In this document: positions 12,808-61,498 of the stretch, piece by piece
Position numbering within the stretch: position 1 is the first letter of the stretch
Layout: each line of letters starts with the position of its first letter
From: an uncultured delta proteobacterium
GTDB taxonomy: Bacteria; Desulfobacterota; Binatia; UBA9968
DNA length: 64,000 bases
Direction of reading: 5' to 3'
NCBI GenBank assembly: GCA_963816145.1
Contig: CAWFJP010000030.1
Span: 96,001-160,000 of the forward strand
Notes under the pieces: model-generated
Databases searched by the model: none
The model's input: only the letters and a program-made list of their open reading frames with translations
Told to the model about the DNA's origin: nothing
Program-made: the position numbers and the translations under genes

Positions 12808-12823
12808 GGCAAAGGAGATGCCA
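12808..12823 (-). promoter_or_regulatory. Sigma-54 promoter TGGCATCTCCTTTGCC
   Basis: Matches TGGCAY-N5-TTGC, 64 bp upstream of ATG 12744. UAS-like sites at 12900-12937. Confidence 0.7.
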
Positions 12824-13117
12824 ACCCGGCCGAATGAATCAAACCTTTGATTTCCAGCAAGAAAGCGATGCCGGGAGCGAATCGGTAAGATTTCTTTTTT
12901 GAAGGGATTTGCCCCTGTGAGCGGGATTTTACTAACAGTGGATGCGGCTTGGATGTAAGCAGGAAAATCGCCGAGCATCGGGCGCAACATTCAAAATCTT
13001 TTCCATAATTGCGGTGCGTCGTCCGACCAGCGCTGGAATGAATTTGGCCTCAAGTGCCGCGAGATCCGCGGCATCAAACGATAACTGAAAGGCGTTCGCC
13101 AGACCGCAGGAAGGAGA

Positions 13118-14680
13118 TCAAAACTGTTCAGGTTCGAGTTGTTTGTCTTGGGCGAAATTCTGATTTAGCGGAAGGTGAATAGTGAAGGTGGTTCCCTGTC
13201 CAGGCTCGCTTACCACGTCGATCCTACCGCCGTGAGATTTTATGATTCGCTCACATATCGGCAGACCCAAGCCCATGCCGCGCCACTTCTTAGCGGTAAA
13301 AAATGGCTGAAAGATCTTGGGCAGAGTGTCCGCGTCAATGCCAAAACCGGTATCCGCCACGGCTAGAATCATCTGGTCGGGCGAATTTTGCATTGCCCTC
13401 AACGTTAGCTTTCCACCAGCCGGCATGGCATCCACGGCATTCAAACACAGATTCACCAGCACCTGTTGCAGCTGCTGCGGGTCGGCATGGATGCGCGGCA
13501 ATTGCGGCGCGATCGCCTTGATGGCTTCGACGTTTTGCTTGTACAGCCTTGTCGAGATCATCTCCAACGTTTTATCAACGATCGCTTCGACCTCGGTCAA
13601 AATGAAATCCGTGCTTTTGGGCCGTCCGAATTCCAAAAGATCTCGCACCATTTTTTCACAGCGTTTGGTCTCTTCGGAGATAATCTGTATGGGACGATAG
13701 TTCGGGTCGGCGGGGTCCATGTCAGTTAAAAGTCCTTGAGCAAAGCCAAGAACTATCCCCAAAGGGTTGTTGAACTCATGGGCCATGGAAGCCGATAGCT
13801 CACCGACCGAAACCAGACGGCCCGAGGCGATGAGTTGCTGCTCCAGTTCCTGCGCTTGTTGGCGGAGCTTCTGCTCACTTTCGCGCAGGGCCTGCTCCGT
13901 CTGTTTACGATTGGTGATATCGATGATAGACACGAGGACGAAAGTTACGTCATTGATTTGGATCGGGTTGAGGCCGATCTCGACGGAAACCTCTGATCCA
14001 TCCTTGCGCATGCCAAAGAGGTCAAGACCCGCTCCCATGGGTCGTGATTTTGGATAGGAAAAAAAACTCGCCCGGAAGTCGGCATGTTTCCCGCGAAAGC
14101 GTTCCGGCACGAGCATTTCGATGGACTCGCGGAGCAGCTCCTCACGGGTATACCCGAAAAGATGCTCGGCGTGAGCGTTGGCCAGGACGATGCGCCCATC
14201 CTTTCCAACCATAATCATAGCGTTTGGCGAAGCTTCAACCGCAAGGTGAAACCGCGCCTCACTTTGCTCGAGCGCTTGCTGCTTGACCCGCTCATTCATG
14301 CGGAACAGATCAACGAACACCGCGACCTTGGCTTTCACGACTTCCGGAACGACTGGTTTGAAAAGATAATCGACCGCCCCGCAGACTACCCCTCGATAGA
14401 CGTCCGATTCCAAGGTATCCACCGCGGAAAGAAAAATGATCGGCACGTGGCGCAACCGCTCGCGTTGCCGGATCAGCGCCGCGGTCTCGAATCCGTCCAT
14501 CTCCGGCATGCGCACGTCGAGCAGGATGACGGCAAATTCCTGCCGCATGAGTTCGCGCAGCGCGTCAGTGCCCGACCGAGCCTTGACGATCTTGCGCCCC
14601 GGCCCCGAGAGCAGGGCTTCCATAGCGAGCAAACTTTTTTCGTCGTCGTCAACGACCAAAATGTTCGCCGTGGATTGCAT
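13118..14680 (-). CDS. Hybrid REC-PAS-HisKA-HATPase signalling protein
   Basis: ILVVDD and LLDVRMPEMDG (receiver), PAS (ANAHAEHLFGY), MAHEFNNPL H-box, GMGLGL G2 box. RBS GAGGAGG precedes ATG 14680. Confidence 0.92.
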   Translation of the reverse strand: MQSTANILVVDDDEKSLLAMEALLSGPGRKIVKARSGTDALRELMRQEFAVILLDVRMPEMDGFETAALIRQRERLRHVPIIFLSAVDTLESDVYRGVVCGAVDYLFKPVVPEVVKAKVAVFVDLFRMNERVKQQALEQSEARFHLAVEASPNAMIMVGKDGRIVLANAHAEHLFGYTREELLRESIEMLVPERFRGKHADFRASFFSYPKSRPMGAGLDLFGMRKDGSEVSVEIGLNPIQINDVTFVLVSIIDITNRKQTEQALRESEQKLRQQAQELEQQLIASGRLVSVGELSASMAHEFNNPLGIVLGFAQGLLTDMDPADPNYRPIQIISEETKRCEKMVRDLLEFGRPKSTDFILTEVEAIVDKTLEMISTRLYKQNVEAIKAIAPQLPRIHADPQQLQQVLVNLCLNAVDAMPAGGKLTLRAMQNSPDQMILAVADTGFGIDADTLPKIFQPFFTAKKWRGMGLGLPICERIIKSHGGRIDVVSEPGQGTTFTIHLPLNQNFAQDKQLEPEQF

Positions 14681-17600
14681 TGTAGCGACCTCCTCGTCGC
14701 GCCTGTTGCTTGCCGAATAACCAGATGCGCAACAGTCCAATCAGCTCCTCGCTGTTTACCGGTTTGGCGATATAATCAGACGCCCCCGCTTCCAAACATT
14801 TTTCCCGGTCGCCTTTCATCGCTCTGGCGGTAAGAGCAAGAATCGGCAGGATCTTGTGTCTGGGGTTTTGGCGGATGCGGCGCGTGATTTCGTAGCCGTC
14901 CATTTCCGGCATCATGATGTCCAAGAGCACAGCGTCGATATCGTCGTCTTGATCGAGCAGCGTAATCGCCTCACGACCGGTCTCGGAGTTTACCACCCGC
15001 AGCCCATGCTGCTCGAGCAGACTGGTCAAAGCGAAGATGTTGCGCACGTCATCGTCCACCACGAGCACTTTCCGGCCGTTCAGCGCTTCGTCGGACCGGT
15101 GCAAACGTTCCAGCATTTGCTGTTTGGCAGGCGGCAGCTCCGCAGCGATAGTGTGTAGAAATAGCGTCGTCTCGTCGAGCAGCCGCTCGGGAGATTCTAC
15201 CCCCTTGAGCACCACGCTCTCGGCCATCCGAATAAGTTTCAACTCATCCGCCTCGCTCAGTTCCTGGCCAGTGAACACGACGATCGGGAGATCGCGCAGC
15301 TCCGGCTCTTGACGGATCCGCTCCAACAACTCGAAGCCGGAGATATCCGGCAGTCGAAGATCAAGCACCACGCAGTCGAATTTTTGGCCATGCAGTGCGT
15401 CCCACGATTCGGCACCGCTCGCCGCGGCAACGATCTCAACACCATTGTGAGTGAGAAGCTCAATGATGCTCTGGCGCTCGATGTCGTTATCTTCGATGAT
15501 GAGTAAGCGTCTCTGACGCGCTTGCGCATAGCGGGTGACCCGGTCGATGGCCTCTCTCAGTTCGTCCGTCGTGGCCGGCTTGATCAGATAGGAAAACGCG
15601 CCGCGACCGAGCCCATGGAGCCTTTCCTCTTCCACGCTAACGACCTGGACCGGTATATGACGAGTGGCCGGATCTTGCTTCAAGTGGTTCAATACCGTCC
15701 ATCCCAACATGTCGGGCAGGAAGATATCGAGCACGATCGCCTGAGGCTTGAATTCGTGGGTTAAGGAACGCACCGGAGCGCCGCGAGCCGTCACTACTCC
15801 TTTGAAGCCGCGCTCCCGCGCCAGTCCCAACAAGACCCCGGCGAAATGCGGGTCGTCCTCGACAATCAAGACCACCGGATCGCCCGGCTCCACGGAGTCT
15901 CGGTCGTCGGCAACCTCTTCCGCCTTGACCGCTTGCTGGACGATCAGCGGCATCGGACTCACCGCGGTGCGTCGGGCGTCGACGGTCACGAGTCCGTAGT
16001 TTTGCGGCAGATACAGCGTAAAGGTGCTCCCGAGTGTGGGCGCGCTGATGAGGCGAATCTCGCCGCCGAGCAGAGTCGCCAGCTCGCGGCTAATCGCCAA
16101 GCCCAGACCCGTCCCGCCGTAACGCCGGCTCGTACCCGCGTCAGCCTGGTGGAAGGCTTCAAAAATGATCTTCTGCTTGTCCTGGGCGATGCCGATGCCG
16201 GTGTCTTTAACCTCGAAGGCAATCACCGTCGCAGCGCTTGCCAGCAGCTGATGATCGGGACTAAAACCGCTCTTCGCGACTTTCATAGTGAACGTGACGC
16301 TGCCGTGGCTGGTGAACTTAAACGCGTTGGACAGCAGGTTCTTTAACACCTGCTGCAAGCGCTTCAGGTCCGTGGTCAGCGCGGTCGGCAGCTCATCATC
16401 CATTTCAATATGAAAAGCCAGATGGCGCGCCTCGGCGACGTGGCGGAAGCTTCGCTCCACCGCCTCGCGCAGCTTGGCGAACGATACTGCTTCCGGTTCG
16501 ACCGTAACTGTGCCCGATTCGATCTTGGAGAGATCGAGAATGTCAGTGATCAGATTCAGCAAATCGGTGCCGGCAGCGTGAATATTCTTGGAAAACTCGA
16601 CCTGCTTCGGCTCCAGGTTGTGCGCGGAATTGTCGGCCAGCTGCTGGGCCAGAATTAAGATACTGTTAAGCGGCGTGCGCAACTCGTGCGACATATTGGC
16701 AAGAAATTCAGATTTGTACTTGGAAGTCAGCGCCAGCTCGGCGGCTTTTTCCTCTAGCGCATGTCGCGCCTGCTCGATTTCTTGATTCTTCCGCTCGACC
16801 TCGGCATTTTGCTCGGCCAGCTGTTTCGCCTTAGTGCCAAGTTCCTGATTGGTTTGCTGTAATTCAGTCTGCTGCGCCTGCAGCTCTCGGGCAAGCTCCT
16901 GTGACTGCTGCAGCAAACCTTCAGTGCGCATAGTCGCCTCAATCGTGTTGAGCACAATGCCGATGCTTTCGGTGAGCTGAGCGAGAAAGGTCTGGTGCGT
17001 TGAGGTAAACTCTTTGACCGAGGCCAATTCAATGACGGCTTTGGTCGCGCCCTCAAAGAGCACCGGGAAGACAATCAAGTTACGCGCCCGGGTATCGCCC
17101 AGGGCGGAGCCGATGCGGACGTAATCTCCCGGCACATCGTCGAGAAGGATTCGCCGTTTTTCCAGTGCGCATTGGCCGACCAGACCGGCGCCCAAAGGCA
17201 GACGGTCCGGCACACTCCGGCTGTCAGCCCCGGCATAGCTTGACAGCACCTGAAGGCAGGCGTCACCATTGCTGGCATTCATTTGATAGATCGCGCCGTA
17301 CTGTGCGTTCACCAGAGGCGCCAATTCCGAGAGCAGCATCTGTCCGACCGCGGTAAGATCGCGCTGGCCCTGGAGCATGCTCGTGAACCTGGCGAGGTTG
17401 GTCTTGAGCCAATCCTGCTCCTTGTTCTCGTCCGTGGTGGCGCGCAGGTTATGAATCATTGAGTTGATGTTGTCTTTGAGCTCTGCGACCTCGCCACGCA
17501 CATCCACTTGAATCGCACGCGTGAGATCTCCCTTGGTGACGGCGGTAGCGACATCCGCGATGGCGCGCACCTGAGTGGTCAAATTGGCCGCCAACAGGTT

Positions 17601-20192
17601 GACGTTGTCGGTCAAATCCTTCCAGATGCCGGCCGCGCCGGGAACGTTGGCTTGTCCGCCCAAACGGCCCTCCACGCCGACTTCTCTCGCCACTGTGGTT
17701 ACTTGCTCGGCGAAGATCGCCAGAGTATTGGTCATGTTGTTGATGGTTTCCGCCAGCGCCGCCACTTCGCCTTTGGCCTCGACCGTGAGCTTTTCGCGCA
17801 AACTGCCATTGGCAACTGCGGTAACAACCTTGACGATACCGCGCACTTGCGCGGTTAGATTGGCCGCCATATCGTTGACGTTGTCCGTCAGATCCTTCCA
17901 CGTGCCGGCCACGCCGGGGACCTGCGCTTGGCCGCCGAGCTTTCCTTCCGTGCCGACCTCGCGCGCCACACGGGTCACCTCCGCGGCGAAACTTCGCAGC
18001 TGATCGACCATGGTATTAATGGCATTTTTGAGCTGGAGTATCTCGCCTTTGACGTCCACGGCGATCTTCTTCGATAAGTCGCCATTGGCGACGGCGATCG
18101 TCACCTCGGCGATATTACGCACCTGGGCGGTTAGGTTACCCGCCATGAAATTCACGCTGTCGGTCAAATCTTTCCACGTGCCGGCCACGCCCGGCACCAC
18201 TGCCTGGCCGCCGAGCTTGCCATCCGTGCCGACCTCGCGCGCCACGCGGGTGACCTCCGCGGCGAAGCCATTGAGCTGGTCGACCATCGTGTTGATGGCT
18301 TCCTTTAACTGCAATATTTCGCCGCGCACATCGACGGTAATTTTTTTCGACAGATCGCCGTTGGCCACGGCGATGGTCACGTCAGCAATGTTCCTGACTT
18401 GCGCAGTCAAATTGCCGGCCATCAAGTTAACGTTGTCGGTCAAATCTTTCCACGTGCCGGCCACGCCCGGCACCACTGCCTGGCCGCCGAGCTTGCCTTC
18501 CGTGCCGACCTCGCGCGCCACACGGGTGACTTCCGCGGCGAAGCCGTTGAGCTGGTCGACCATCGTGTTGATGGCTTCCTTGAGCTGCAGAATTTCGCCT
18601 TTGACGTCGACGGTAATTTTTTTGGAAAGGTCGCCGTTGGCGACGGCGATCGTGACATCGGCGATGTTTCTCACCTGGCCGGTCAAGTTGCCGGCCATCG
18701 CGTTGACGCTATCAGTCAGGTCCTTCCACGTTCCAGCAACGCCGGGGACCTGCGCTTGGCCGCCGAGCTTGCCATCCGTGCCAACCTCGCGCGCTACCCG
18801 CGTTACTTCCGCGGCGAAGCCGTTGAGCTGGTCGACCATCGTGTTGATGGCTTCCTTGAGGAGCAAAATCTCACCGCGCACGTCAACGGTGATTTTCTTC
18901 GATAAGTCACCGTTGGCGACGGCGATCGTGACATCGGCGATGTTTCTCACCTGGCCGGTCAAGTTGCCGGCCATGATATTGACGCTTTCCGTCAGGTCCT
19001 TCCATACGCCGCTCACATCGCGGACCTGCGCCTGGCCGCCGAGCTTTCCTTCCGTGCCGACCTCGCGCGCCACACGGGTGACCTCCGCAGCGAAACTTCG
19101 CAGCTGATCGACCATGGTGTTGATGGTGTCTTTGAGTTGGAGGATCTCGCCTTTGACGTCCACGGCGATCTTCTTGGACAAATCGCCATTGGCGACGGCG
19201 ATTGTCACTTCGGCGATATTACGCACCTGGGCGGTTAAGTTACCCGCCATGAAATTCACGCTGTCGGTCAAATCTTTCCATGTGCCGGCGACCCCCGGCA
19301 CCACCGCCTGGCCGCCGAGCTTGCCATCCGTGCCGACCTCGCGCGCCACACGGGTGACCTCCGCAGCGAAACTTCGCAGCTGATCGACCATGGTGTTGAT
19401 GGTGTCTTTGAGTTGGAGGATCTCGCCTTTGACGTCCACGGCGATCTTCTTGGACAAATCGCCATTGGCGACGGCGATTGTCACTTCGGCGATATTACGC
19501 ACCTGGGCGGTTAAGTTACCCGCCATGAAATTCACGCTGTCGGTCAAATCTTTCCATGTGCCGGCGACCCCCGGCACCACCGCCTGGCCACCGAGCTTGC
19601 CATCCGTGCCGACCTCGCGCGCCACCCGGGTGACCTCCGCGGCGAAGTTGTCGAGCTGTACGACCATGGCGTTGACCATCTTTGCGACGCGCAAAAACTC
19701 GCCGCGCAGCGGTTGTCCCTCCGCCTCCAGAGCCATGGTTTGGTTCAGATCGCCTTTGACAACCGAGCCGATCACCCGCGCCATCTCCGTGGTCGGCCGA
19801 ACCAGGCTATCGATCAACTCGTTGATCGCATTGACCTGAACCTTCCATGCCCCTCCAGCGGCAGGAAGCGCCGCCCGCTGAGATATCTTCCCTTCTTTGC
19901 CGACGACACGGTTGACGCGCTCGAATTGCTTCGTGCTCTCGGCCATCAGTTCGATAATCTCATTGAGAGTATCGGCGATCTTTCCGTCGATGCCGCTCCA
20001 AAAGTCGGGAAGCCGAGCCGAGAAATCGCCTTTTTTAATCGACGTGAGCACGGTGAGAAGCTGCTTGCTGTTCAGCTTGTCGCCATCGACTGCAAGCGCG
20101 CTTTTAGTCGGCATAAACTTTCTCCCGCTCGACCGACTCAGGGCCAATGGTCTAGCGCGCTGTTTGACTTTTGTTGAGTCTTTCGCGCTCAT
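14649..20192 (-). CDS. Cytoplasmic poly-HAMP hybrid histidine kinase (HAMP repeats-GAF-HisKA-HATPase-3xREC), OsaA / fungal group III-like
   Basis: About 8-9 repeats of 92 aa ([17 protein letters not shown]), [17 protein letters not shown] and three receiver domains. No obvious TM helix. Confidence 0.93.
17600..19660. repeat. 276-bp coding tandem repeat (HAMP units)
   Basis: Period of 276 nt; 19051-19349 and 19327-19625 are almost identical. Confidence 0.92.
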
Positions 20193-20542: not shown

Positions 20543-20558
20543 TGCAGAAATCATTCCA
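20543..20558 (-). promoter_or_regulatory. Sigma-54 promoter TGGAATGATTTCTGCA
   Basis: GG-N10-GC spacing, upstream of the poly-HAMP kinase. UAS-like sites at 20631-20649 and 20651-20669. Confidence 0.6.
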
Positions 20559-20837
20559 CTTCTTGAGCTGCGGGATGTCATGGATTTTTAATGATATTTT
20601 CATTTACCTCGACCGGTTCGAAAGCAAGTCTATAGGTGTTTTTCCTTCTTTGACGGTAATTTCCCTCCAAGTTGTCGGGTATACGGTTCGCTTAGGCTAG
20701 CTGTTGGGGTTAAAACCCGCTGTGCGCAATACTATCCCCAACTCTCCCGCCAACCAGGCCCATGCGTCCCGGTTTATTATCGAACGGACTATCGCAATCT
20801 CAGAAAAGAGGCGATCAGCGTCGAACTCGGCTTGGCA

Positions 20838-21188
20838 CTACGACGTTGTATGATGCGGAAGTTCAGACGGGGACGAAACCGTGGTCTTGAGTTGGGCATT
20901 TTCCGCTTCGAGTTCGTGGACCCGCTGTTCCAGATCGGCGACGGTATGCTTGGTTTTTTTTATCGCGCGATCTTTTCCATAGATCGTCAACGTCGAGGAA
21001 ACCGACCTGGCAAAATAGAGAATCCCTGCCATGAAGAGTCCGACCAATAACGACCCCACGATAACCAGATACAAGGGGACATCGTTCCAGACGTAGTCGT
21101 TGAGCCGGATCGTCACCGGGCTAATGTTTTGCATTCCAAAGTAAGCGATCGCGATCCCGGAAATAACTGCTACAAGTAAAACCAACAT
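20838..21188 (-). CDS. LapA / DUF1049 family membrane protein
   Basis: Two TM segments with FGMQN and VPLYLVIVGSLLVG, followed by a coiled coil. Confidence 0.75.
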   Translation of the reverse strand: MLVLLVAVISGIAIAYFGMQNISPVTIRLNDYVWNDVPLYLVIVGSLLVGLFMAGILYFARSVSSTLTIYGKDRAIKKTKHTVADLEQRVHELEAENAQLKTTVSSPSELPHHTTS

Positions 21189-21729: not shown

Positions 21730-21745
21730 AGCAGAAATCATTCCA
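21730..21745 (-). promoter_or_regulatory. Sigma-54 promoter TGGAATGATTTCTGCT
   Basis: GG-N10-GC spacing; 15/16 identical to the 20543 site. UAS-like TGAAGTA-N5-CCCTACA at 21840-21858. Confidence 0.6.
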
Positions 21746-22478
21746 ACACCGGTCATTCCAAAAAAATTGCGATTTTCAAAGGTGTTGTAGTTTCGCCGGA
21801 TTGTCAGTGCGGTTTACTTCAGACGCTTTTCTCCTATTTTGAAGTAAATTTCCCTACAATAAATCATGACGTTAATAAGCTTTGCTAACCATGCGCTTGA
21901 TTCTACTAAACGCGCCAAAGTTTCTGTTGTATCACCCGAGACCGATAACCGATGGCACTTGGCTTTCAGTCGAAAAGATACCCGGGAAATCTAATCCAAG
22001 CAAATGCAGGGCGGCGTTGCCGCACTTCGCCGAATCAACAATGGGAACGGGAGTGGGTGCATGGCTAGCAAAAACTTACATCAATTATCATTAGGAGTCG
22101 TCGGGAAATTTAACAGCGCCCCAAATCCAAGCACGGAGTCATGAATCCCGCGACAATCTGGAATGACGATAAATAGCGTAAGCCATCGCGACCGTCTCGA
22201 GGTCGCTGATTGCCAAGAATTTGGGCTTCTCCTTCTGCGAGCGGCTGTAAACCCATGTGGCGATCGAAACAGCTACGCGAAAGCCTTTGCAGTCGTGAAG
22301 CGCGGCTCGCAAGAGTCACTTGGCGACCATTGACCGTCATCCCTGAAGGATCGTTATAGCAAGTAGACAGTAAAATTCCTCCGCTATCGATATGAAAAGC
22401 TCTTTCTCTCAATCTCGTCAACCGCATCGTTAGTTACAAAAACGCATCAAGTTCAAGCTCATCCGACTACACCTCGGT

Positions 22479-22494
22479 TGGCACCCGGCTTGCT
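22479..22494 (+). promoter_or_regulatory. Sigma-54 promoter TGGCACCCGGCTTGCT
   Basis: Near-perfect consensus, 50 bp before ATG 22545. Confidence 0.8.
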
Positions 22495-27104: not shown

Positions 27105-27123
27105 TGTAGGGCAAATCCCTTCA
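27105..27123. promoter_or_regulatory. Candidate bEBP upstream activating sequence TGTAGGGCAAATCCCTTCA
   Basis: Best copy of the recurring 19-bp imperfect palindrome, 73 bp upstream of the promoter at 27196. Confidence 0.55.
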
Positions 27124-27195
27124 CAAGAACACAGCAACTCAATTACTCAAATAAGATTCGCCGCAAATGTACCGATCATACGCGCTTCAAGCAGC

Positions 27196-27211
27196 TGGCA
27201 CGCGCCTTGCG
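27196..27211 (+). promoter_or_regulatory. Sigma-54 promoter TGGCACGCGCCTTGCG
   Basis: Consensus match, upstream of ATG 27268. Confidence 0.75.
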
Positions 27212-30017: not shown

Positions 30018-30033
30018 CGCACATACGGTGCCA
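30018..30033 (-). promoter_or_regulatory. Sigma-54 promoter TGGCACCGTATGTGCG
   Basis: GG-N10-GC spacing, upstream of the PRC/csbD unit. UAS-like site ending CCCTACA at 30108-30126. Confidence 0.65.
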
Positions 30034-30299
30034 AGCCGGTTGCTTCTACATAACGTTCGCGTTATCGGCGAGTTATGAATTTTCAATTCTTCGAATGAGT
30101 TGTCGACAGCAGAACTATTCCCTACACAAGTAACGGACAGGGTTAGAGATTTTCATGCGACGAACGACACGGTCAACGACCAAGGCGGGAGGCCCCGATC
30201 TCGTCGTCATCATTGGCGAGTTGACCGGGACCTTTGTATAGGCGGGGGTTATGGGAATTTGCTGGTAAGCCTCCAACGTCGTGCCACTTTCATCCCTTA

Positions 30300-31767: not shown

Positions 31768-31783
31768 AGCAACGGTCATGCCA
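31768..31783 (-). promoter_or_regulatory. Sigma-54 promoter TGGCATGACCGTTGCT
   Basis: Consensus match. UAS-like sites at 31882-31900 and 31902-31920. Confidence 0.78.
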
Positions 31784-32448
31784 GCGCATGAGCGAATGAA
31801 AATTCTCCCGAGTTAACGAGGCTCTTACTTGATCTTGCCGCACGGACAGTCACCCAAGCCGGCAGCGCTTTTCATGCAAACTGTCAGGAATTCACCTCTT
31901 GGGTAGGTTTTCCGCTGACGCTTTTGCAAGATGTGGCGTCTCGTTGGTTCGCTGATCCTCGTGGCAGCGCGGTTACTTATATAGAGTTTGTCGGCTGCGC
32001 AACGATCCGCAACGATCGCGCTCAAAAGCTCACTCCGATACAACTTAAATATTTCTGGGAAACTCCACACCTGATGCGCCAAAACCGCTGCCGGCGCACC
32101 ACCGCGGGTGAATCGCCAACAAACCAGATTACCGCACAGTCTCTGAACTCGGTTCCGTCCATTAGGGTTTTGCCAGGGTGGCGGTCTGCCGGCTATTTCG
32201 ATTTCTCACTTTGCTTTCGATCCACGCGCCGTGTGGTTCAGCAATTTTGTTCCCGCTTTTATACTAAGGCCTGTCGCTTCATTTCCTTCAGAAGACCTAG
32301 CCAAATCCAAGTGCGAGGATGCGATCTTCCTGAAACGTCAGTGTTTTCCCTCCGAGACATAGGGACAAATCGGACACAGTGAATCTGATAGAAATTTACC
32401 GGCCCGCTAACTCTTCCAAAGCACAGCGATATTGAGCGAGGAGAGTTT

Positions 32449-32464
32449 TGGCATATCGTTTGTA
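32449..32464 (+). promoter_or_regulatory. Sigma-54-like promoter TGGCATATCGTTTGTA (-12 variant)
   Basis: Good -24 box, GT instead of GC at -12. UAS-like sites at 32336-32354 and 32358-32376. Confidence 0.5.
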
Positions 32465-36623: not shown

Positions 36624-38072
36624 TCACTCGGATTTCTTGTAATCGGCTACTTTAATTTCGTGTTTTTTTAACAAATCATAGAAATCCGCCCGATATTTCC
36701 CGGCAATCTCAGCAGCTTTCGACGCTTTACCACTGCAAATCTCCAGCAGCTGAATGAGATATGCTTTTTCAAATTCTGCCCTGGCTTCTTTTAACGACTT
36801 GAGAGCTTCCGGCGTGGGTAACAGATCGGCCTGCGGCAGACCCACTACGGGCGTTGGAACCGCCGGCACTTCTTTCTGTACGACTAGATCGTCGGTAATA
36901 ACATCCTGCTGCGTCATGGTCACGGCATACTCCAAGGTATTCTCCAATTCGCGCACGTTGCCTGGCCAGTCATGCTGCATCAGCTTTTGCATCGCCTTAG
37001 GAGTCAGGCCGGTGACGTTCTTCTTCGTTTGTTGGCAAATCTTTTTCAGCAGATGATCGACGAGATGGGGAATGTCTTCCGCGCGATCTTTTAGCGGCGG
37101 CAGAATCAGGGGAATGACATGAATGCGATAGAAGAGATCTTCACGAAATGTCCCCTTCTTCACTTCCTCGACCAAGTCTTTCTTCGTCGCGACTACCACC
37201 CGAACATCGACTTGAACCGGTTTATCGCTCCCGACGGGATAAAATTCACGTTCTTCCAATGCCCTCAAGAGCTTCACCTGGATGGTGATCGGCATGTCGC
37301 CGATCTCATCGAGAAAAAGCGTGCCTTCATGAGCCTGGGTAAATAACCCCTTGGTGCTGCGCACAGCTCCTGTAAACGCGCCTTTCTCATGTCCGAAAAG
37401 TTCACTTTCGAGCAAGGTTTCCGGGATGGCGGCGCAATTGATCGCGACAAATGGCTTATCCTTGCGTGCGCTCGCAAGGTGGATCGCCTTGGCGATCAGT
37501 TCTTTGCCGGTCCCGCTTTCGCCGTGAATGTAGACCGTGGAGTCGGCATTGGCGATTCGAGTCACCGCCTCGAGCACTCTTTGCATCTTATCGCTCTTGG
37601 CGACGATGTTGGCGAAATCATATTTTTCCTTCAACATGTCTTTGAGCCGGAGGTTTTCGGATGCGAGTTTGCGGCTTTCCAGAGCGCGCTCGATTTGTAA
37701 AAACAGCTCGCGCGGATCAAACGGTTTCGTAAGATAGGTGTAAGCGCCTCGCTTCATCGCCTCGACGGCGCTCTCGATGCTGGCATAACCGGTGAGAATG
37801 ATGACCGGCATCTCCGGATTGACCGAGTGCAAGCGCTCCATCAGCGTCATTCCATCTTGGTCAGCGATACGCAGATCGACGATCGATAGATCGAACTTGC
37901 CCCTCTTGGTCGCGTCGACTGCCGCTTCGGCATCGCCAGCCACCACCACATCGTAATTCGCGCCATTGAGCCGGGCTCTGACTAATTCGAGCAAATTCTG
38001 GTCGTCGTCGACCACCAAAAGTCTTGATGTCGGCATAACGATTCTCTCAATAGCCGTTTTATTTGTATCCAT
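36624..38072 (-). CDS. Sigma-54-dependent response regulator (REC-AAA+-HTH), GlrR/NtrC-like
   Basis: Receiver domain, GESGTGKE, intact GAFTGA, LFLDEIG, FREDLFYR, WPGNVREL and a GlrR-like HTH (RADFYDLLKKH). Confidence 0.93.
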   Translation of the reverse strand: MDTNKTAIERIVMPTSRLLVVDDDQNLLELVRARLNGANYDVVVAGDAEAAVDATKRGKFDLSIVDLRIADQDGMTLMERLHSVNPEMPVIILTGYASIESAVEAMKRGAYTYLTKPFDPRELFLQIERALESRKLASENLRLKDMLKEKYDFANIVAKSDKMQRVLEAVTRIANADSTVYIHGESGTGKELIAKAIHLASARKDKPFVAINCAAIPETLLESELFGHEKGAFTGAVRSTKGLFTQAHEGTLFLDEIGDMPITIQVKLLRALEEREFYPVGSDKPVQVDVRVVVATKKDLVEEVKKGTFREDLFYRIHVIPLILPPLKDRAEDIPHLVDHLLKKICQQTKKNVTGLTPKAMQKLMQHDWPGNVRELENTLEYAVTMTQQDVITDDLVVQKEVPAVPTPVVGLPQADLLPTPEALKSLKEARAEFEKAYLIQLLEICSGKASKAAEIAGKYRADFYDLLKKHEIKVADYKKSE

Positions 38073-38564: not shown

Positions 38565-38580
38565 ATCAAGCCACGTGCCA
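38565..38580 (-). promoter_or_regulatory. Sigma-54-like promoter TGGCACGTGGCTTGAT (-12 variant)
   Basis: Strong -24 box, GA at -12. Tandem UAS-like sites at 38656-38674 and 38675-38693; points towards the bEBP gene. Confidence 0.5.
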
Positions 38581-39029: not shown

Positions 39030-40160
39030 GTGGTGGCGGTTCTGCTCTACACAGCGATTGCGTTTCTTAAGCAGACCCGGGCAGCATTCATCATTCGCGG
39101 CATTTTTATTCTAGCCGCGATTTATATTCTCGCACGTTATCTCGATCTGCAGCTTACGGCGTGGCTCTTTCAAGGTTTCTTCGCTATTTTTCTGATCATC
39201 ATAGTGGTTATTTTCCAGGAGGAACTTAGACAGATATTCGAACGGATTGCGGTTTGGAGTCTCGCGCCATCCGGTGCCCCTTCACTGCGTTCGGATGCCG
39301 CTGACATCCTAATCGGCACGATCGCGGACCTGGCCAAGGACAAGATCGGCGCGTTGATCATCGTCGAAGGCAAAGATCCCATCGCCCGTCACATTACTGG
39401 CGGAATCGAATTGGAGGGAAAGATCAGCGAGCCTCTGTTAAAAAGCATTTTTGATCCCCATTCGCCGGGTCACGACGGCGCTGTCATCATCAAGAACGAT
39501 CAGATCGCCCGCTTCGCCGCTCACCTGCCGTTGTCAAAGGATTTCCGCCAACTAGCTCGTGTTGGCACCCGTCACGGTGCCGCCCTTGGCCTGGCCGAAC
39601 TAAGCGATGCTCTGTGCATCGCTGTTTCCGAAGAGCGTGGCAAGATTTCCCTGGCCCGCGATGGACAGCTGCGTCAAGTTGAAAATATGCAAGAGTTGGG
39701 TTCGTTGTTGCAGCGATTCTTACGCGAGAAATACCCGGCGTCGGAGCATCGCGGATTCTCATTTTCGCTAGTACGACAGAACTGGCCGGCAAAACTGGTG
39801 ACGTTCTCGCTTGCAGTCGGGCTTTGGTATGTGTTGGTACCCGGCTCGAGCACCATTGAAGTAACCTACAAACTTCCGGTGCAATTAGAAAATCTGCCGG
39901 CGGATATGCGTGTCCAAGAAGTCCAGCCTCGAGAAATAAAAGCAACATTTATCGGGCCGAAGCGAACCTTTTATTTTTTCGATCCCTCCAAACTCAAGGT
40001 CACGGTCGACCTATCATCCGCGTCAATCGGCCAAAAAACCCTACGACTTTCTGAGCAAAACATCCGCCATCCGCAAAATCTCACGCTACAACAGCTAAAC
40101 CCGGCGATGTTACGAATCTCGATAGCGCAGTCGCCGCGCAAAGAAAGTGACAGCGGTTAA
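39030..40160 (+). CDS. cdaA: Diadenylate cyclase CdaA fused to a TM helix and YbbR-like domain
   Basis: Three TM helices, VIFQEELR, PGHDGA, GTRHGAALG and VSEERG, then a C-terminal YbbR-like region. The true start may lie about 60 bp upstream. Confidence 0.87.
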   Translation: MVAVLLYTAIAFLKQTRAAFIIRGIFILAAIYILARYLDLQLTAWLFQGFFAIFLIIIVVIFQEELRQIFERIAVWSLAPSGAPSLRSDAADILIGTIADLAKDKIGALIIVEGKDPIARHITGGIELEGKISEPLLKSIFDPHSPGHDGAVIIKNDQIARFAAHLPLSKDFRQLARVGTRHGAALGLAELSDALCIAVSEERGKISLARDGQLRQVENMQELGSLLQRFLREKYPASEHRGFSFSLVRQNWPAKLVTFSLAVGLWYVLVPGSSTIEVTYKLPVQLENLPADMRVQEVQPREIKATFIGPKRTFYFFDPSKLKVTVDLSSASIGQKTLRLSEQNIRHPQNLTLQQLNPAMLRISIAQSPRKESDSG

Positions 40161-50629: not shown

Positions 50630-50646
50630 CTTCCCTACAATCGGAA

Positions 50647-54585: not shown

Positions 54586-54592
54586 GGCGTTT

Positions 54593-55894: not shown

Positions 55895-56067
55895 TGTTTT
55901 GTTGCCTGCGAGCACGTCGGCTTTCTCGCTCCATAGCCACGCTGATGGCTGCAGAATTGAGGGTTGAACAGGTTCTCAACTACGCGCCATTAGCGCGGTC
56001 GCGGGATTTCGAAAATTGCCGTGACCATCTGGAACCACCAATCCAACACAAAGTAATCCCTGACAGG

Positions 56068-56083
56068 CGCAAGAAAGATACCA
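56068..56083 (-). promoter_or_regulatory. Sigma-54 promoter TGGTATCTTTCTTGCG for the glg/tre operon
   Basis: GG-N10-GC spacing. Tandem UAS-like sites at 56155-56173 and 56174-56192. Confidence 0.65.
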
Positions 56084-56591
56084 GCGCCGACGAAGGTGAA
56101 AGTGCTCGAAAGTAAAGGAATCGGACTTGTCGGAGAAGTAAATGGCGCCTGGAGTGACGGGTTTTTTCTACTTTGGAAGAGTTTTTCCTACAAATCTAAA
56201 GCGTTCTCGATGAACCTAATCCGACGGTGAGATAAGGCAGCCAAAACCCTCGAAGTCACGGAGCCCATTTAAAGATGATTTTCCGAAGCAGCTTCGCCGT
56301 ACATATTCAGGTAGCGGCCAGGAGGGAAGGTCATCTGATTCGTTCAGCGACAGAGAGGCCCCAACAATCAGCGTTCCACATGTTGGCCTGGCATCGCGAT
56401 CCATTCAAGGAAAGATTCAGATAGCAGTTGCTGCGCATCCGCTGATAGCCTGCAGCATTGAAATTAGAATTTTTCGATCACGCCGAAATCTGAAAGTCGA
56501 AAACCGCCGCAAGTCGCCACAACATTCCCGCATCGCAGTAAACAAACACATGCTCGAATTACTAAATTATTGACAGCATACCAATCTTGCC

Positions 56592-57398
56592 TCAATTATC
56601 CTCTTCTGCCGCGGTCCAGTTTGCGGCTTCCTCCGCAGTCAGTGAACCAATCGGGATGTACCGCGCATCCGAATATCCCCACGTCTCAACATCGTCGCGA
56701 TATTGAGTGCGCGACAGCAGCGTGCCCCGGCACACGCGGTTCCTCGACAACGGCCCGCCTTTCTCGATCTGTAGCTGATCCAGCAGAGATCCCATCACCG
56801 GCGAAGGCACCAGAGGATGTTCCGACGGATAAATATATCCAAAAAGAATTAGATGGCTAAGGAGCACCCGCCAGTGTGGTCCAAAACGCTCCAACAGCCG
56901 TCGCCAGTCGAGACGCGCCGCGCACGCACGTATAAGATGCGCGACATCGGCGCCGTCATAGCGTTCGCGCTCCATGACAAACGCCTTGGACCAAATCATT
57001 TCTTCCGGTGGGCAGAAAATCACCGGTACATCGTACACCTCTCCCACAACCGCATGCTCAAACCAGCCACCGTCGACCGCGCAGACACCATTTCCCGAAC
57101 TGAAAATGAGGTCGATATAATCCCGACCGCTGAAAATCTTTCCAAGCCAATGAGGATAGCAAAGCTTAGTTTCAAACTGACTCCCCGCGAGCGTCTTTAG
57201 AGCGAACTCGACGTCCGAAGGCCGCACGAAGATATCCATATCTTTCGTCTTGCGACTGATTCCGGAGTACAACTCCACGGCGTGGCCACCGCCAACGAGA
57301 TATCTAATCTTAGATTCGTTGAACACTTCGAGGACACTGCGGTAAAAATCTTGCCGGTTGGACGTTGTCGACAAAACTGACTCGACGGCTTTACTCAT
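56592..57398 (-). CDS. Nucleotidyltransferase (DNA polymerase beta superfamily), uncharacterised
   Basis: LVGGGHA and TKDMDIF (GG/DxD) motifs. Overlaps the upstream gene by 8 bp. Confidence 0.82.
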   Translation of the reverse strand: MSKAVESVLSTTSNRQDFYRSVLEVFNESKIRYLVGGGHAVELYSGISRKTKDMDIFVRPSDVEFALKTLAGSQFETKLCYPHWLGKIFSGRDYIDLIFSSGNGVCAVDGGWFEHAVVGEVYDVPVIFCPPEEMIWSKAFVMERERYDGADVAHLIRACAARLDWRRLLERFGPHWRVLLSHLILFGYIYPSEHPLVPSPVMGSLLDQLQIEKGGPLSRNRVCRGTLLSRTQYRDDVETWGYSDARYIPIGSLTAEEAANWTAAEEDN

Positions 57399-58131
57399 TA
57401 TGTCTCGGCTCCAAACTCTGCGGGATCTCCATTATTCGAAACCCAGGATGGTCCGGAAACACATGTTGTAAGAGCTTCATGGCGACATTGTAAACGGGCA
57501 CACCGTTTTTCGTGCGTCCCTCCGGAGCGCCGTGATGCGCGTGCCCATGAAAGACAGCGGTTACCGGATATCGATTAAGCGGTTCCTCGAGTCTGCTCGA
57601 TCCCAGAAACGGAAATATCTCGGCCGGCTCACCCACCACCGTGGCTTGAATCGGCGAATAGTGCAGCAGAACTATACGCGTTTCCGAGCGCAGCCGTGCC
57701 AGGGCTGATTCTAGCTTCAGTGCCTCATCGATCGCCTCGTGGACAAAACGTTTGACGGTTTCCTCGCCCCAGGGGCCGAGAGCCCGCTCGCCAAAGCCGC
57801 CGCCGAACCCTTTGACGCCGGCAAAACCAACTCCGCCAACCTCACGGGCGTCGCCGTCGAGCACTATGGCACCGGCATCGGAAATAATTCTTTTGACTTC
57901 GTCCGGTTTACCAGACTCAAATTCATGATTGCCGAGCACAGCTAAGACCGGGATTTTCAGGCTGCTTATTTCCTTCGCCAGAACCATCGCCTCTTCGGGC
58001 AAACCATAATCAATAAGATCACCACACAGCAGAAGCACGTCGGCACTTTGAGCGATCTGCATAATCAGGGGTCGCATCCAATCATGCGAAGTATTGTTGC
58101 AATGCAGGTCTGCGAGAGCGGCGATGCGCAT
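57391..58131 (-). CDS. Calcineurin-like metallophosphoesterase
   Basis: DLH, GD, GNHE, LLHY and HGHAH motifs. Confidence 0.9.
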   Translation of the reverse strand: MRIAALADLHCNNTSHDWMRPLIMQIAQSADVLLLCGDLIDYGLPEEAMVLAKEISSLKIPVLAVLGNHEFESGKPDEVKRIISDAGAIVLDGDAREVGGVGFAGVKGFGGGFGERALGPWGEETVKRFVHEAIDEALKLESALARLRSETRIVLLHYSPIQATVVGEPAEIFPFLGSSRLEEPLNRYPVTAVFHGHAHHGAPEGRTKNGVPVYNVAMKLLQHVFPDHPGFRIMEIPQSLEPRHNE

Positions 58132-58648: not shown

Positions 58649-58664
58649 CGCAAAAGGCGTGCCG
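58649..58664 (-). promoter_or_regulatory. Sigma-54 promoter CGGCACGCCTTTTGCG
   Basis: GGCAC-N5-TTGC match. UAS-like TGTCGGA-N5-GCCTACG at 58734-58752. Confidence 0.7.
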
Positions 58665-59016
58665 GTCAATTAACTGGCAAATCACCTATAAACGAAGTGT
58701 TTTCCCGAGCTAATTCCGACATGCACGCGCATTTGTCGGAGATTCGCCTACGGAGTTTTCCTACGCGCAGATTCAATTCCGTGGGAATCTCGATATTTGT
58801 GTGGCAAGTTGAAAACAGCAAAGCAGCGCGATCACTGCACGAGGCAGCGTTCAGATAATATGTGTTGTCGCTTCCGGAAGCCTAATCGTGCGACGATGCC
58901 TACGTCCGAGGTCGGTGCACTCACGATGACTGTCAGATAGCCAAGACAAGGTAGAAAGGTATTACGGATCCAATCGCGGGTGTTCTTTGTAGACGCTTCG
59001 ACTGACCGTGGGGCAC

Positions 59017-60081
59017 CTAAATCTCGCTAAACATGCATGAACGCAATGCCTCGATCTTTCTTTTGTAACAGCCCGGGTCGAGAAACCGCAGCGTGGCAGC
59101 GATGCTACTCAACAATGAATTGCCGTCCTGCGGGGTGAAACACACGCCGACCACTTCACGGTCTCCCTTGAGCGCGAGACTTTGCCGGACAACGACCGTC
59201 TGGTTCAAAATTCGACCGAAGAGTCCATGATCGCGCCCGAAGGAAAATACTGAAGCCGAAGAGCTCTTATTGGTCAAAGCGATTCTCGGGTTGGCCTCGA
59301 TCCGCTGTATGACATTCTCTAACGTCGTCGGCCGGCGCAACACCAGATCGAAATGAATCATATGCATATACTGGGTGTTTAACTTCAGTGCCGAGGAAAA
59401 TATATTCAAGTCCAGACCGCGGGTTTTAAACAGATAATGGGCGTCTCGTGCCTGATGTGTGCCAAAACGGCGATCATCATGTTTTCCGGCTTCGGGTGCC
59501 GCGATGAACGCGCCATCCTCGCTCAGATCGTTGGCCCGGCGCATACAAACAAAACGTGCCTCTGCCAAATTGTCTTCCTGTGCCGGCCCCAATGCGATGG
59601 TGTCGATTACTGCGGCCAAGTTATGCGTATTGCAACTCACCACCTGTACGAACCGGTCGCAATCCCTATCGAGTATTGTGTCGTTGATCCCGTGTGCATA
59701 CATTTTACCGAAGCCAAATTCACTGCCTTGGGCAATAAAGCCGCAGCCGTTGGTAGCGTAACGATCATAATATTTCCGCTTGTTTTCATTACCCGCGGGT
59801 GTGCAATCGATCACCACCTTCGCGCGCCCGATCGCATCCTCCGCTTCATAGCAGGGCTCCATGCCGAGGTCGCTGAACGTTCCCCAACGCTCCTTGTCGA
59901 CGCACAGTTTTGCGCCGTGGCCGGCCAGCACTGCCACTTTTGACCGGTCGGTCACCAAGGGAGTTCGTTTATGAAAGGTGATTTCGTCGATACCGAACGG
60001 CTGGCGAAAGTTGGCCAACAGGCCAATCAGCGGCTCGCCGATGGTTCCAGTTCCGACCACGTGGACGATGTTTTTGTGCAT
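59017..60081 (-). CDS. Class II (archaeal-type) GAPDH-like dehydrogenase
   Basis: GTGTIG Rossmann motif, IDCTP, QG, catalytic VVSCNT and RRAND. Confidence 0.65.
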   Translation of the reverse strand: MHKNIVHVVGTGTIGEPLIGLLANFRQPFGIDEITFHKRTPLVTDRSKVAVLAGHGAKLCVDKERWGTFSDLGMEPCYEAEDAIGRAKVVIDCTPAGNENKRKYYDRYATNGCGFIAQGSEFGFGKMYAHGINDTILDRDCDRFVQVVSCNTHNLAAVIDTIALGPAQEDNLAEARFVCMRRANDLSEDGAFIAAPEAGKHDDRRFGTHQARDAHYLFKTRGLDLNIFSSALKLNTQYMHMIHFDLVLRRPTTLENVIQRIEANPRIALTNKSSSASVFSFGRDHGLFGRILNQTVVVRQSLALKGDREVVGVCFTPQDGNSLLSSIAATLRFLDPGCYKRKIEALRSCMFSEI

Positions 60082-60200: not shown

Positions 60201-60216
60201 AGCAACCGTTATGCCA
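60201..60216 (-). promoter_or_regulatory. Sigma-54 promoter TGGCATAACGGTTGCT
   Basis: Consensus match. UAS-like site at 60313-60331. Confidence 0.78.
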
Positions 60217-60413
60217 ACACCTCGCCGCTTGGTATTCACTCGCTTTGAAACTGTTTTGAGTATCAGCTCGCCGATAAGAGTCGTCAATTCATTAGTGGGT
60301 TTCATACAACCCAGGAAGAGTTTTTCCTGCGATTTTTAACTCTGTTGAATCTCCGTGATATCTCGGTACTGCGCGGCATGTAACCCACGAACAGCAGAAC
60401 TCAACGTTGCAGA

Positions 60414-60952
60414 TCATAAGACCGTGATGCCTTCCTCCCGATAACGGCGATGCATTCGCTTGACAAATTCATGTTTGTACAAAAAGTTGTCACCCAGTCC
60501 CCGGCCGCTCAATGTCACCGCAAAATCAACCCCCGAAGGATTGAACGCAGAAAAACGGACGAAGGTATCGCGGTGCGAATCTCGTTTGCATAGGGTTTTA
60601 AACATTTCTCGCACGACGTGGCAGGTTACCTGCTCGACTGCTTCCAGGTCGTTGTTGCAGTGCACCCTCAGCTGAACCTAGACCATCGAGTCGTTAGAGT
60701 GGCTGTGAAAGTTGCTGATGTTACTCTGCACGAGTTTGCTGTTGGGCACATAGACCGTAACTTGGGGAAGTTCCCTGATCTGCGTATTGCGCCAGCCTAT
60801 ATGCTCTACATAGCCTTCTTCCCCCGTTGAAAGTCTCACGTATTGGCCGACCTGCAGCGGTTGGTCGGCTTTGATGTATAACCCGGCAAAGAGGTTGCCG
60901 AGCGTGTCCTGAAGCGCGATGACGATTGCCAAACTGCCGATGCCAAGTGTCG
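60414..60952 (-). pseudogene. MscS small mechanosensitive channel, N-truncated and frameshifted
   Basis: LGIGSLAIVIALQDTLGNLFAG, GYVEHIGWRNT, VPNS and RYREEGI. Confidence 0.85.
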
Positions 60953-61129
60953 TCACGCGCCTTTGGTTGCAGCGGAGAATTCGACGGTCTCCTGGCCCTT
61001 GTCGGTCTTCAGCAAAATTTGTTTTTTGCCCTGATCGACCCTCGCCACGGTACCTTCCAGGAGCGCCGCGTAAACGGAAATCGTGGGAACAAACAGCACG
61101 ACGGCCGCAAATGCTAATAGCTTCCTCAT
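60953..61129 (-). pseudogene. Exported OB-fold protein, truncated at the junction with the mscS remnant
   Basis: RBS AGGAGGTGA; MRKLLAFAAVVLFVPTISVYAALLEGTVARVDQGKKQILLKTDKGQETVEFSAATKGA*. Confidence 0.6.
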
Positions 61130-61205
61130 GGTTTATCACCTCCTTTCTCTGTATGTTGTTGAGCGCGCTTAGAAGAAATCGCCGTGTCGCCCAGTGCGGT
61201 ATTTG

Positions 61206-61221
61206 CGCAAGGCCTGTGCCA
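61206..61221 (-). promoter_or_regulatory. Sigma-54 promoter TGGCACAGGCCTTGCG
   Basis: Consensus match. UAS-like site at 61293-61311. Confidence 0.78.
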
Positions 61222-61498
61222 GATGCCCAGGGTTATTAAATTGCTATAATTTTCATGTCCATTGACGACCGACATGAATGCTCAACGGCTTTTGTAAGGG
61301 TTTTTCCGCTGAAGGAAAGTAGATATTTCCTGCGCTTGATTACCGATAACCGTGATTCACATCGACACTCGACCGCGCCTACATTTCGATGGTTCGCGCG
61401 CGATCATCAATTGCACTCCGTGAAACGCCCATTAAAGAGGTTATTCCCCTTGGTGATTTCGGTTGACCGGGGTAAGCCGCGGCGATTAATAAAAGTCC

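Follow-up and report, generated by a model that had tools for sequence, protein, structure and literature searches.

General stress responses of bacteria are, in textbook terms, controlled by alternative sigma factors of the sigma-70 family, and sigma-54 (RpoN) is known for nitrogen, motility and envelope functions and for a few narrow stress modules. Can a gene set of the first kind be driven by promoters of the second? The question is raised by a stretch of 64,000 nucleotides (nt) from an uncultured delta proteobacterium, hereafter the window (positions 96001-160000 of contig C30 in genome G000, which has 7.82 Mb, 31 contigs and 56.4% G+C). An original prediction had placed 13 sigma-54 (-24/-12) promoters in this window and had joined them into a general stress regulon through RpoN, an enhancer-binding protein (EBP) and a phosphorelay. 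The answer reached here, from DNA sequence, is that the 49-kb region at 12500-61400 of the window (48,901 bp, hereafter the island) probably carries 13 sigma-54 promoters forming one regulon under a single, island-encoded EBP of the NtrC type, which would be positively autoregulated. Coordinates without a contig prefix are window positions, and C1, C2, C11, C13, C14, C18 and C30 are contigs of G000.

All 13 of the -24/-12 matches first reported are present in the DNA, the minus-strand ones lying one base higher than originally given (12809 for 12808). The GG-N10-GC core is kept, as had been claimed, in 11 of them, the exceptions being 32449 (..TTGT) and 38566 (..TTGA). According to gene calls based on open reading frames (ORFs), each of the 13 cores sits between ORFs and is aimed at a downstream ORF; where a start preceded by a Shine-Dalgarno sequence could be called, it lies 52-125 nt past the core. 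Of the 34 exact TGGCAC-N5-TTGC matches in the genome, 27 lie between genes and point at one, though intergenic DNA represents only 16% of the genome (by crude calls), which argues that the motif is functional in this organism. When up to one mismatch is allowed, this pattern occurs 12 times in the window against 5.4 +/- 2.1 times in shuffled sequence, and none of 100 shuffles reached 12.

A position weight matrix (PWM) for sigma-54 was trained on 115 intergenic, gene-oriented sites, all of them outside the window, and gives 141 matches of at least 16 bits in the genome, 105 of them intergenic. The original prediction had proposed such a matrix as a check for enrichment in the island, and the enrichment was found: seven intergenic matches of at least 16 bits against 0.62 expected by length (P = 4e-6) or 0.95 by intergenic bases (P = 6e-5), and 11 matches of at least 12 bits against 1.56 and 2.41, respectively, amounting to a 7- to 11-fold excess by length. 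Ten of the 13 cores score at least 12 bits on this outside-trained matrix. Among 1331 sliding windows of 48.9 kb, just one region, on contig C1, is as dense as the island in sigma-54 motifs or denser. The first 12 kb of the window, where no site had been noticed before, indeed contain no intergenic match of at least 12 bits.

The promoters also share an upstream element. Reading by eye of the 300 nt 5' of each core revealed a recurrent A-rich box between GG and CCCTTCA; exact dyad and k-mer counts on the upstream regions returned A-rich words only, and the element surfaced after the sequences had been read and expectation-maximisation (EM) had been applied. It is an imperfect inverted repeat, usually close to TAGGGAAAnTCCCTTCA, and is present at all 13 promoters; its ideal form, the 16-bp palindrome GAAGGGAATTCCCTTC, is approached at C14:674627 and in the related genome G014. 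Counted from the first base of the core, it occupies two fixed registers, about 89 and about 110 nt 5' of the -24 element. Position-blind EM on the interval -220 to -20, with about 183 possible positions, placed the best match at -86 to -93 or at -107 to -115 in 13 of 13 cases. Several promoters (EBP, glgC, kinase) have both boxes, about 19-21 bp apart.

Across the genome, an element of at least 12 bits lies within -125 to -80 of 15 of the 1491 sigma-54 matches scoring at least 10 bits, against one and three at control offsets, and 10 of these 15 in-register pairs fall in the window. In a leave-out test, a matrix built from 10 strong promoters put the best matches of the three weak ones in register, out of about 285 positions; the probability of meeting a match of at least 14 bits in a 46-nt window of random intergenic DNA is 0.001. 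Hence, the weak cores at 20544, 21731 and 32449 are supported by the presence of the upstream element; the first two consist of an identical 15-mer in which TGGAAT replaces TGGCAC. Dyad symmetry, fixed upstream spacing, sharing among promoters and conservation are the properties expected of an EBP enhancer, and the element is regarded below as a candidate upstream activating sequence (UAS) with predicted binding. The 13 units (TU numbers) are given here by core, each UAS lying on the strand of its core:

12809..12823, minus strand: TU1 core (18.4 bits), with a UAS at 12899..12916 (register -93), before five small ORFs of no family at 11535-12741.
20544..20558, minus strand: weak TU2 core (<8 bits), with tandem UASs at 20630-20647 and 20650-20667 (leave-out scores of 14.0 bits at -109 and 12.3 bits at -89), before a poly-HAMP hybrid kinase (14649-20192) and a REC-PAS kinase (13118-14740).
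21731..21745, minus strand: weak TU3 core (<8 bits), with a UAS at 21839..21856 (leave-out 17.5 bits at -111), before a single-domain response regulator (21268-21699) and a LapA-domain protein (20838-21218).
22479..22493, plus strand: TU4 core (18.8 bits, exact consensus), with a UAS at 22391..22408 (register -88), before genes for HpnM/MlaC-like, DUF4168 and REC proteins and an OsmB/YiaD-like glycine-zipper lipoprotein, small ORFs and a kinase (26143-27009).
27196..27210, plus strand: TU5 core (18.0 bits), with a UAS at 27107..27124 (20.9 bits, register -89), before small ORFs including 27576-27890, one of them a conserved protein of 104 amino acids (aa), p104.
30019..30033, minus strand: TU6 core (16.6 bits, unusual ATGTGC -12 variant), with a UAS at 30107..30124 (11.3 bits, register -91), before a 52-aa ORF, CsbD (29485-29742), a 129-aa ORF and a second CsbD (28758-29033), CsbD being CsbD/YjbJ.
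31769..31783, minus strand: TU7 core (19.3 bits), with a UAS at 31881..31898 (register -115), before two small ORFs, an RlpA-like protein (30722-31228), DUF3096 (30528-30665) and DUF1328, or YtjA (30300-30470).
32449..32463, plus strand: weak TU8 core (..TTGT, <8 bits), with a UAS at 32360..32377 (leave-out 8.7 bits, exactly -89), before an OsmY-like BON protein (32530-32880), an NTP-transferase (32908-34020), a second BON protein (34293-34616), small ORFs, DUF5670 and an Fe/Mn superoxide dismutase, SOD (35444-36064).
38566..38580, minus strand: core of the EBP gene (..TTGA, 12.9 bits), with tandem UASs at 38655-38672 and 38674-38691 (16.3 and 11.7 bits).
56069..56083, minus strand: TU10 core (TGGTAT.., 12.1 bits), with tandem UASs at 56154..56190 (23.2 and 13.0 bits), before glgC, glgB, treZ, glgX, treY, glgE and treS-mak (40215-55915; enzyme names from NCBIfam).
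58650..58664, minus strand: TU11 core (13.5 bits), with a UAS at 58733..58750 (18.5 bits, register -86), before a 114-aa ORF, a metallophosphoesterase (57391-58131) and a 268-aa ORF.
60202..60216, minus strand: TU12 core (19.7 bits), with a UAS at 60312..60329 (17.1 bits, register -113), before a 354-aa protein (59017-60081).
61207..61221, minus strand: TU13 core (20.5 bits, exact consensus), with a UAS at 61292..61309 (18.6 bits, register -88), before MscS across 60414-61139.

The gene names proposed before stand for csbD, BON, DUF1328, SOD, treS, treY, treZ, glgE and MscS. No match was found for YtxH, and the call of lmo0937 falls below its NCBIfam cut-off (25.4 against 30), although the same ORF passes Pfam DUF5670. 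The 354-aa protein of TU12 has a weak likeness to type II GAPDH (NCBIfam, 86 bits, short of the cut-off). A possible divergent sigma-54 match at 21953-21967 (plus strand, 8.6 bits) would use the element at 21839-21856 in reverse; it was left out as a 14th site, having no clear gene downstream. MscS (60414-61139, minus strand) is read in three frames, and an MdoG-like gene (62071-62636, minus strand) and a DDE transposase (5463-6865, plus strand) are also split over two to three frames.

Are these promoters maintained in other genomes? The relatives compared are G003, G004, G006, G014, G015, G016, G017 and G018, together with G025 from a neighbouring family; the unpublished genome G005 supports none of the claims made here. 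Within the genus, the EBP orthologues are 68-80% identical, and the genes around them stand in a different order, although the same set is found clustered. Since the gene order differs in every relative examined, the island region is likely flexible. Its G+C content is 48.5-53% between 20000 and 40000, below that of the genome, and about 25% of the island is intergenic against 16% genome-wide (crude calls). Conservation upstream of orthologues, a second check proposed with the original prediction, was found for the EBP, csbD, DUF1328, sp45, p104, metallophosphoesterase, MlaC, MscS and response regulator units. In 60-kb regions from five other species, the element is in register at 9 of 90 sigma-54 matches, whereas the control offsets gave 2 and 1 of 90.

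Conservation of the EBP promoter extends to six species: core and element precede the orthologue in G018, G017, G014, G006 and G015 as in G000. In these five relatives the -12 element before the EBP gene is always non-consensus (TTGA, TTGT or TTGG), and the tandem boxes are kept in G018, G014 and G006. In G016, an RlpA-like gene and the EBP gene lie behind a site of 17.1 bits. For the other units, an orthologous site with the element precedes the sp45 homologue in G003 (TU1), sites with the element lie 5' of the response regulator orthologue in G006 and G014 (TU3), and a site lies 5' of the MlaC orthologue in G018 (TU4). A core nearly identical to that of TU5 precedes the p104 orthologue in G003 and G004, with an element of 18.1 bits at -85 in G004; the ATGTGC variant of the csbD unit (TU6) is kept in the same two species. 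G003 also has a 16.9-bit site with a 14.3-bit element at the DUF3096-DUF1328 unit (TU7) and a 19.8-bit site 5' of the orthologue of the metallophosphoesterase unit (TU11), and a 20.0-bit site lies 5' of the MscS homologue in G014 (TU13). In G025, whose EBP is 59.5% identical, no signature was seen on its 12.8-kb contig piece. A search of wider genome contigs with the EBP returned 80 loci of generic NtrC-family paralogues from many phyla, none above 50% identity; a homologue of any island stress protein occurs at only three of them and the module at none, a result uninformative on the distribution outside the genus.

Which protein would bind the element? The best candidate is encoded within the island, next to a divergent gene with which it shares its enhancer region:

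36624..38072, minus strand: NtrC-type EBP gene (Pfam Sigma54_activat 245.6 bits, REC 96 bits, AAA lid).
39030..40160, plus strand: CdaA-type diadenylate cyclase (Pfam DAC 122 bits), the divergent neighbour of the EBP gene.

The EBP has the receiver acidic pocket, Walker A and B motifs, GAFTGA and C-terminal helix-turn-helix of the NtrC class. Its closest matches are GlrR and AtoC, and it remains under all NCBIfam equivalog cut-offs (GlrR, 467.5 for 763; AtoC, 444.6 for 714; NtrC, 433.6 for 558.6; PEP_resp_reg, 434.6 for 502.6), which places it outside those named EBP families. A leader of about 490 nt (38073-38565) separates its promoter from the start codon; it is 320-650 nt long in the relatives, belongs to no Rfam family and, in G017 and G015, its space holds a homologue of the window's 72-aa ORF (35179-35397). 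The cdaA gene also adjoins the EBP orthologue in G018, and the sole plus-strand sigma-54 match before it scores 11.0 bits, at 38767. As c-di-AMP is an osmoregulatory messenger, a link to the EBP circuit is tempting.

Three histidine kinases and two single-domain response regulators are encoded beside the EBP. The REC-PAS kinase of TU2 is the first candidate for a cognate kinase, because its orthologue adjoins the EBP orthologue in G014, G006 and G016. The large kinase of the same operon has 1847 aa with eight to nine HAMP domains (Pfam), GAF, HisKA, HATPase and three REC domains; it matches the solved AskA arrays (9trk, E = 5e-120; 9trj, E = 1e-71), and its domains suggest a kinase of the AskA type.

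From these parts a mechanism can be proposed, in which the element-binding protein, the phosphorelay partners and the operon extents are all predictions. Dimers of the phosphorylated EBP would bind the imperfect inverted repeat, ideal or usual in form, in one or both registers 5' of the TGGCAC element; the EBP would oligomerise at the boxes and use ATP to open the sigma-54 closed complex. Because the same module precedes the EBP gene, the response regulator/LapA unit and the two-kinase operon, the circuit would feed back on itself and be positively autoregulated. Its output would be protection against water, osmotic and oxidative stress: two CsbD proteins, two BON/OsmY-like proteins, DUF1328/YtjA, DUF3096, the OsmB/YiaD-like lipoprotein, SOD, MscS, the RlpA-like protein and the GlgC-GlgB-TreZ-GlgX-TreY-GlgE-TreS/Mak operon for trehalose and alpha-glucan, together with further units elsewhere in the genome that are described below.

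Several observations, on the promoters and on the activator, weigh against this reading. The intergenic and operon calls come from a crude ORF-based gene caller, and operon extents follow solely from same-strand adjacency. Three cores (20544, 21731 and 32449) score below 8 bits on the PWM, and the simple TGGCAC-N5-TTGC pattern is not enriched in the window at up to two mismatches (81 against 67.7 +/- 8.4, with 6 of 100 shuffles reaching the count), which is why it was replaced by the PWM. The matrix for the element was initially derived from the 13 promoters themselves, a circularity mitigated by the leave-out and cross-species checks. By itself this matrix is unspecific, with 1221 genome matches of at least 11 bits, and at lax thresholds the pairs of element and sigma-54 match number 26 against controls of 11 and 15, about twofold, so only the strong pairs are credible.

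Could the matches then be chance occurrences or relics, the genes being driven by promoters of the sigma-70 family? The lack of enrichment at two mismatches would agree with this, as would the sigma factors of the genome. As had been stated before, no sigma or anti-sigma gene was found in the window (100 ORFs scanned), and none of the 14 sigma-70-family loci of the genome lies on contig C30. Read by sequence, they comprise RpoD, a 509-aa RpoD-like protein, an RpoH-like protein and about 11 ECF types; on this explanation the second RpoD-like sigma or the ECF sigmas, for example, would drive the genes, and dual promoters are common for stress genes. The second RpoD-like sigma scores 259, where the RpoS cut-off is 378.7, and it is under the RpoD cut-offs too; neither a FliA- nor a SigB-type sigma was seen among the 14 loci, and the one protein tested was under the RpoS and SigB equivalog cut-offs. 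No PhyR equivalent passed a curated threshold, the anti-sigma, RsbV/W and PhyR families having been covered without a systematic search, and a dedicated stress sigma of the sigma-70 family with an anti-sigma or partner-switching module was not found. A scan of 27-39 kb for sigma-70-like consensus matches showed no enrichment (8 against 9.8 +/- 3.4) and was uninformative. Against this explanation, the enrichment, the orientation, the conservation of cores despite shuffled gene order and the fixed-register element are not expected by chance, which makes it highly improbable, although additional sigma-70-type promoters may exist beside the sigma-54 ones.

The second set of objections concerns the activator. 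A single rpoN is accompanied in the genome by 40 matches to the sigma-54 interaction domain, of which 34 are very strong EBPs, including a paralogue of the island EBP on the same contig (C30:352860-354254, 65% identical). The G003 island has two EBPs, and it is the second, less similar one that lies in an operon preceded by a sigma-54 site and the element, with sp45 and DUF1328 homologues. Given the paralogue and this second G003 protein, the element could be assigned to more than one EBP. In G003 and G004, the closest EBP orthologue has no sigma-54 site 5' of it, and elements of at least 11 bits are missing at four orthologous promoters (G014 36991, G003 47667 and 32962, G004 33961). In G018, no site of at least 10 bits precedes the first gene of the tre/glg operon, which lies beside the EBP and cdaA genes; the only relative that allowed this check thus does not keep tre/glg in the regulon. 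These points would suit real sigma-54 promoters whose element is bound by another protein (the paralogue, another of the 34 EBPs, or an architectural or repressor protein that is no EBP), with the island EBP controlling a subset of them or something else. However, element and core stand before the EBP orthologue in six species, no such pair was found near the paralogue, and the position of the element (about 110-135 nt from the predicted start), its dyad symmetry and its tandem boxes are typical of enhancers in the NtrC family. Binding by another protein is thus considered distinctly unlikely.

Transcripts from the field count on the side of the proposed regulon. At least 59% of sampled words from 27-37 kb were found in each of 14 soil or wetland DNA runs, and 6-20% in six RNA runs. 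Metatranscriptome contigs from four soil runs of three studies, 95-99% identical to the window, cover DUF1328, the CsbD unit, both BON genes, the NTP-transferase and SOD; such contigs show neither strand, level nor start. Four of them, one from each run, start at 32499-32513, where no loose end is listed; this is 24-38 nt past the predicted TU8 start (about 32475) and before the start codon at 32530. As a pointer to the start of TU8, which has the weakest promoter, this is a weak hint. The parts of 20-40 kb left uncovered by RNA (e.g., 21.3-22.7 and 38.7-39.3 kb) give no evidence of silence.

Outside the window, strong promoter-element pairs precede three units elsewhere in the genome:

C1:155480: Hsp20-LonC-like-DksA-like unit.
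C14:674627: AAA_22-BON protein.
C2:71912: receiver and GNAT/ADP-forming acyl-CoA-synthetase-type (Pat-like) protein.

These three would complete the cargo proposed above. Pairs at C18:158102, C14:686247, C13:233513, C11:501254 and a few others were rejected for being weak, for lying within coding sequence or for want of a gene downstream. The Hsp20 promoter at C1:155480 lies within the dense region of contig C1 (C1:14000-160000), a second sigma-54 cluster in which it is the exception, most other sites being without the island element. Sites of at least 14 bits precede two Hsp20 genes, an alpha-glucan phosphorylase-like gene, a universal stress protein (Usp) and a ribosome hibernation factor fused to a cold-shock domain, and also archease, alanine dehydrogenase, a PFOR subunit, cytochrome c and a SHOCT protein. 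Since this cluster is mostly devoid of the island element, C1 likely has an EBP circuit of its own, with a cargo of the dormancy type, and the stress genes would be spread over more than one EBP circuit.

The C1 cluster also bears on whether the island serves a dormancy or differentiation programme, leading, as in Myxococcus, to resting cells that resemble cysts or spores, instead of an acute general stress response. Hsp20, Usp, the hibernation factor and alanine dehydrogenase would fit such a programme, as would the storage and protectant synthesis and the RlpA-like wall enzyme of the island, and positive autoregulation suits a commitment switch. The AskA-type kinase points the same way, deletion of AskA affecting fruiting and sporulation according to the available part of PMC13446029. 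However, the window showed no genes of the spore-coat, exo or nfs types. Transcripts occur in several bulk soil metatranscriptomes, which is compatible with dormancy as well as with acute stress, and the two readings are not exclusive. Taken by itself, a dormancy programme appears rather unlikely.

What signal would activate the regulon assigned here to the island EBP? Bacterial poly-HAMP kinases are described as poorly characterised in the accessible part of PMC13446029, their fungal group III relatives (Nik1/Os-1) being osmosensors upstream of the HOG pathway. By analogy with these fungal osmosensors, and because of the cargo, hyperosmotic or desiccation stress is the most likely inducing signal. 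The poly-HAMP hybrid kinase architecture is shared with AskA/AskB of Myxococcus xanthus; the island kinase differs in its shorter array, in its added GAF domain and in its operon, which is preceded by a sigma-54 promoter and enhancer and includes the REC-PAS kinase.

The label of a general stress response is plausible and is borrowed from the gene content, which by itself matches the responses of RpoS, SigB and EcfG. CsbD/YjbJ, OsmY/BON, YtjA/DUF1328, OsmB-like proteins, SOD, trehalose and glycogen enzymes, Hsp20 and MscS are all members of such regulons. The RpoS (Gammaproteobacteria), SigB (Firmicutes) and EcfG-NepR-PhyR (Alphaproteobacteria) systems carry similar cargo, including Hsp20 and the OsmB-like glycine-zipper lipoprotein. 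They differ in using sigma competition, proteolysis or partner switching, whereas -24/-12 promoters, an ATP-driven EBP and a response regulator on a predicted enhancer would be used here. The sigma-54 stress modules of enterobacteria (PspF-psp, ZraSR-zraP, GlrKR, NorR and RtcR) govern one to few operons with narrow functions, and ZraR autoregulates from a divergent pair of sigma-54 promoters. With the island they share a single EBP, its specific enhancer some 100 nt upstream, the small size of the regulon and an input from stress; unlike them, the island has at least 13 units, with about three more elsewhere, and the canonical general-stress gene set. The best-supported view is that the circuit would work like these enterobacterial modules but carry the gene set that defines RpoS, SigB and EcfG responses. 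The original prediction is upheld as far as enriched, oriented and conserved motifs, a shared element and an island EBP with kinases and response regulators are concerned; a 'general stress' response, rpoN dependence and the replacement of a stress sigma of the sigma-70 family do not follow from these data.

A partial precedent exists in Pseudomonas. In the part of PMC8202526 available, glgA/X/B/E and treZ/Y/S are reported to be down in an rpoN mutant of P. fluorescens, and homologues of the glg/tre genes to be RpoN-activated in a kinB mutant of P. aeruginosa. That evidence comes from transcriptomes, with direct promoters and the enhancer undefined in the same portion of the paper, and other stress genes there are RpoS-dependent. 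Osmotolerance is mentioned for Listeria only in the accessible part of Francke et al. 2011 (PMC3162934), and rpoN serves merely as a reference gene in PMC6641147. A full-text search, with most subscription journals outside its coverage, found no published sigma-54/EBP regulon with csbD, BON, DUF1328 and trehalose genes. The enhancer sequence in two registers, the 13-unit island and the autoregulated kinase set are newly described here.

If the regulon is as proposed, one and the same set of protective genes can come under promoters that are all-or-none, ATP-gated and free of basal leak, a property suited to costly desiccation and osmotic defences in soil. It would also provide a concrete enhancer sequence that can be tested and a few candidate sensor kinases, in an uncultured group frequently met in metagenomes of soils and wetlands, and the first link, by gene context only, between a bacterial poly-HAMP kinase and an output of the osmotic-stress type. 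A bolder extension would be that sigma-54 and self-amplifying NtrC-type activators replace RpoS, SigB or EcfG as master of general stress and anhydrobiosis in this soil lineage and perhaps in several soil phyla, with the AskA-type kinase as water-stress sensor and the C1 circuit devoted to dormancy (Hsp20, Usp, ribosome hibernation); this is conceivable and is put forward tentatively, as a doubtful proposition.

Two minor observations concern the glycogen genes and the edge of the window. A conserved CGGCACCGG-N-TTTGT match lies about 190 nt 5' of glgC in G017 (9642, plus strand) and G018 (16305, plus strand), in coordinates of their 60-kb regions, with 10.7 and 10.8 bits and without the island element; it may be a separate sigma-54 input to the glycogen genes or may have arisen by chance. 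A scan of the window at Rfam gathering thresholds returned two tRNAs only, with no riboswitch in the long leaders. The two, tRNA-Gln(CTG) and tRNA-Glu(CTC), lie at 4275-4426 on the plus strand, directly 3' of the GluRS gene, and the GlnRS gene adjoins them on the opposite strand.

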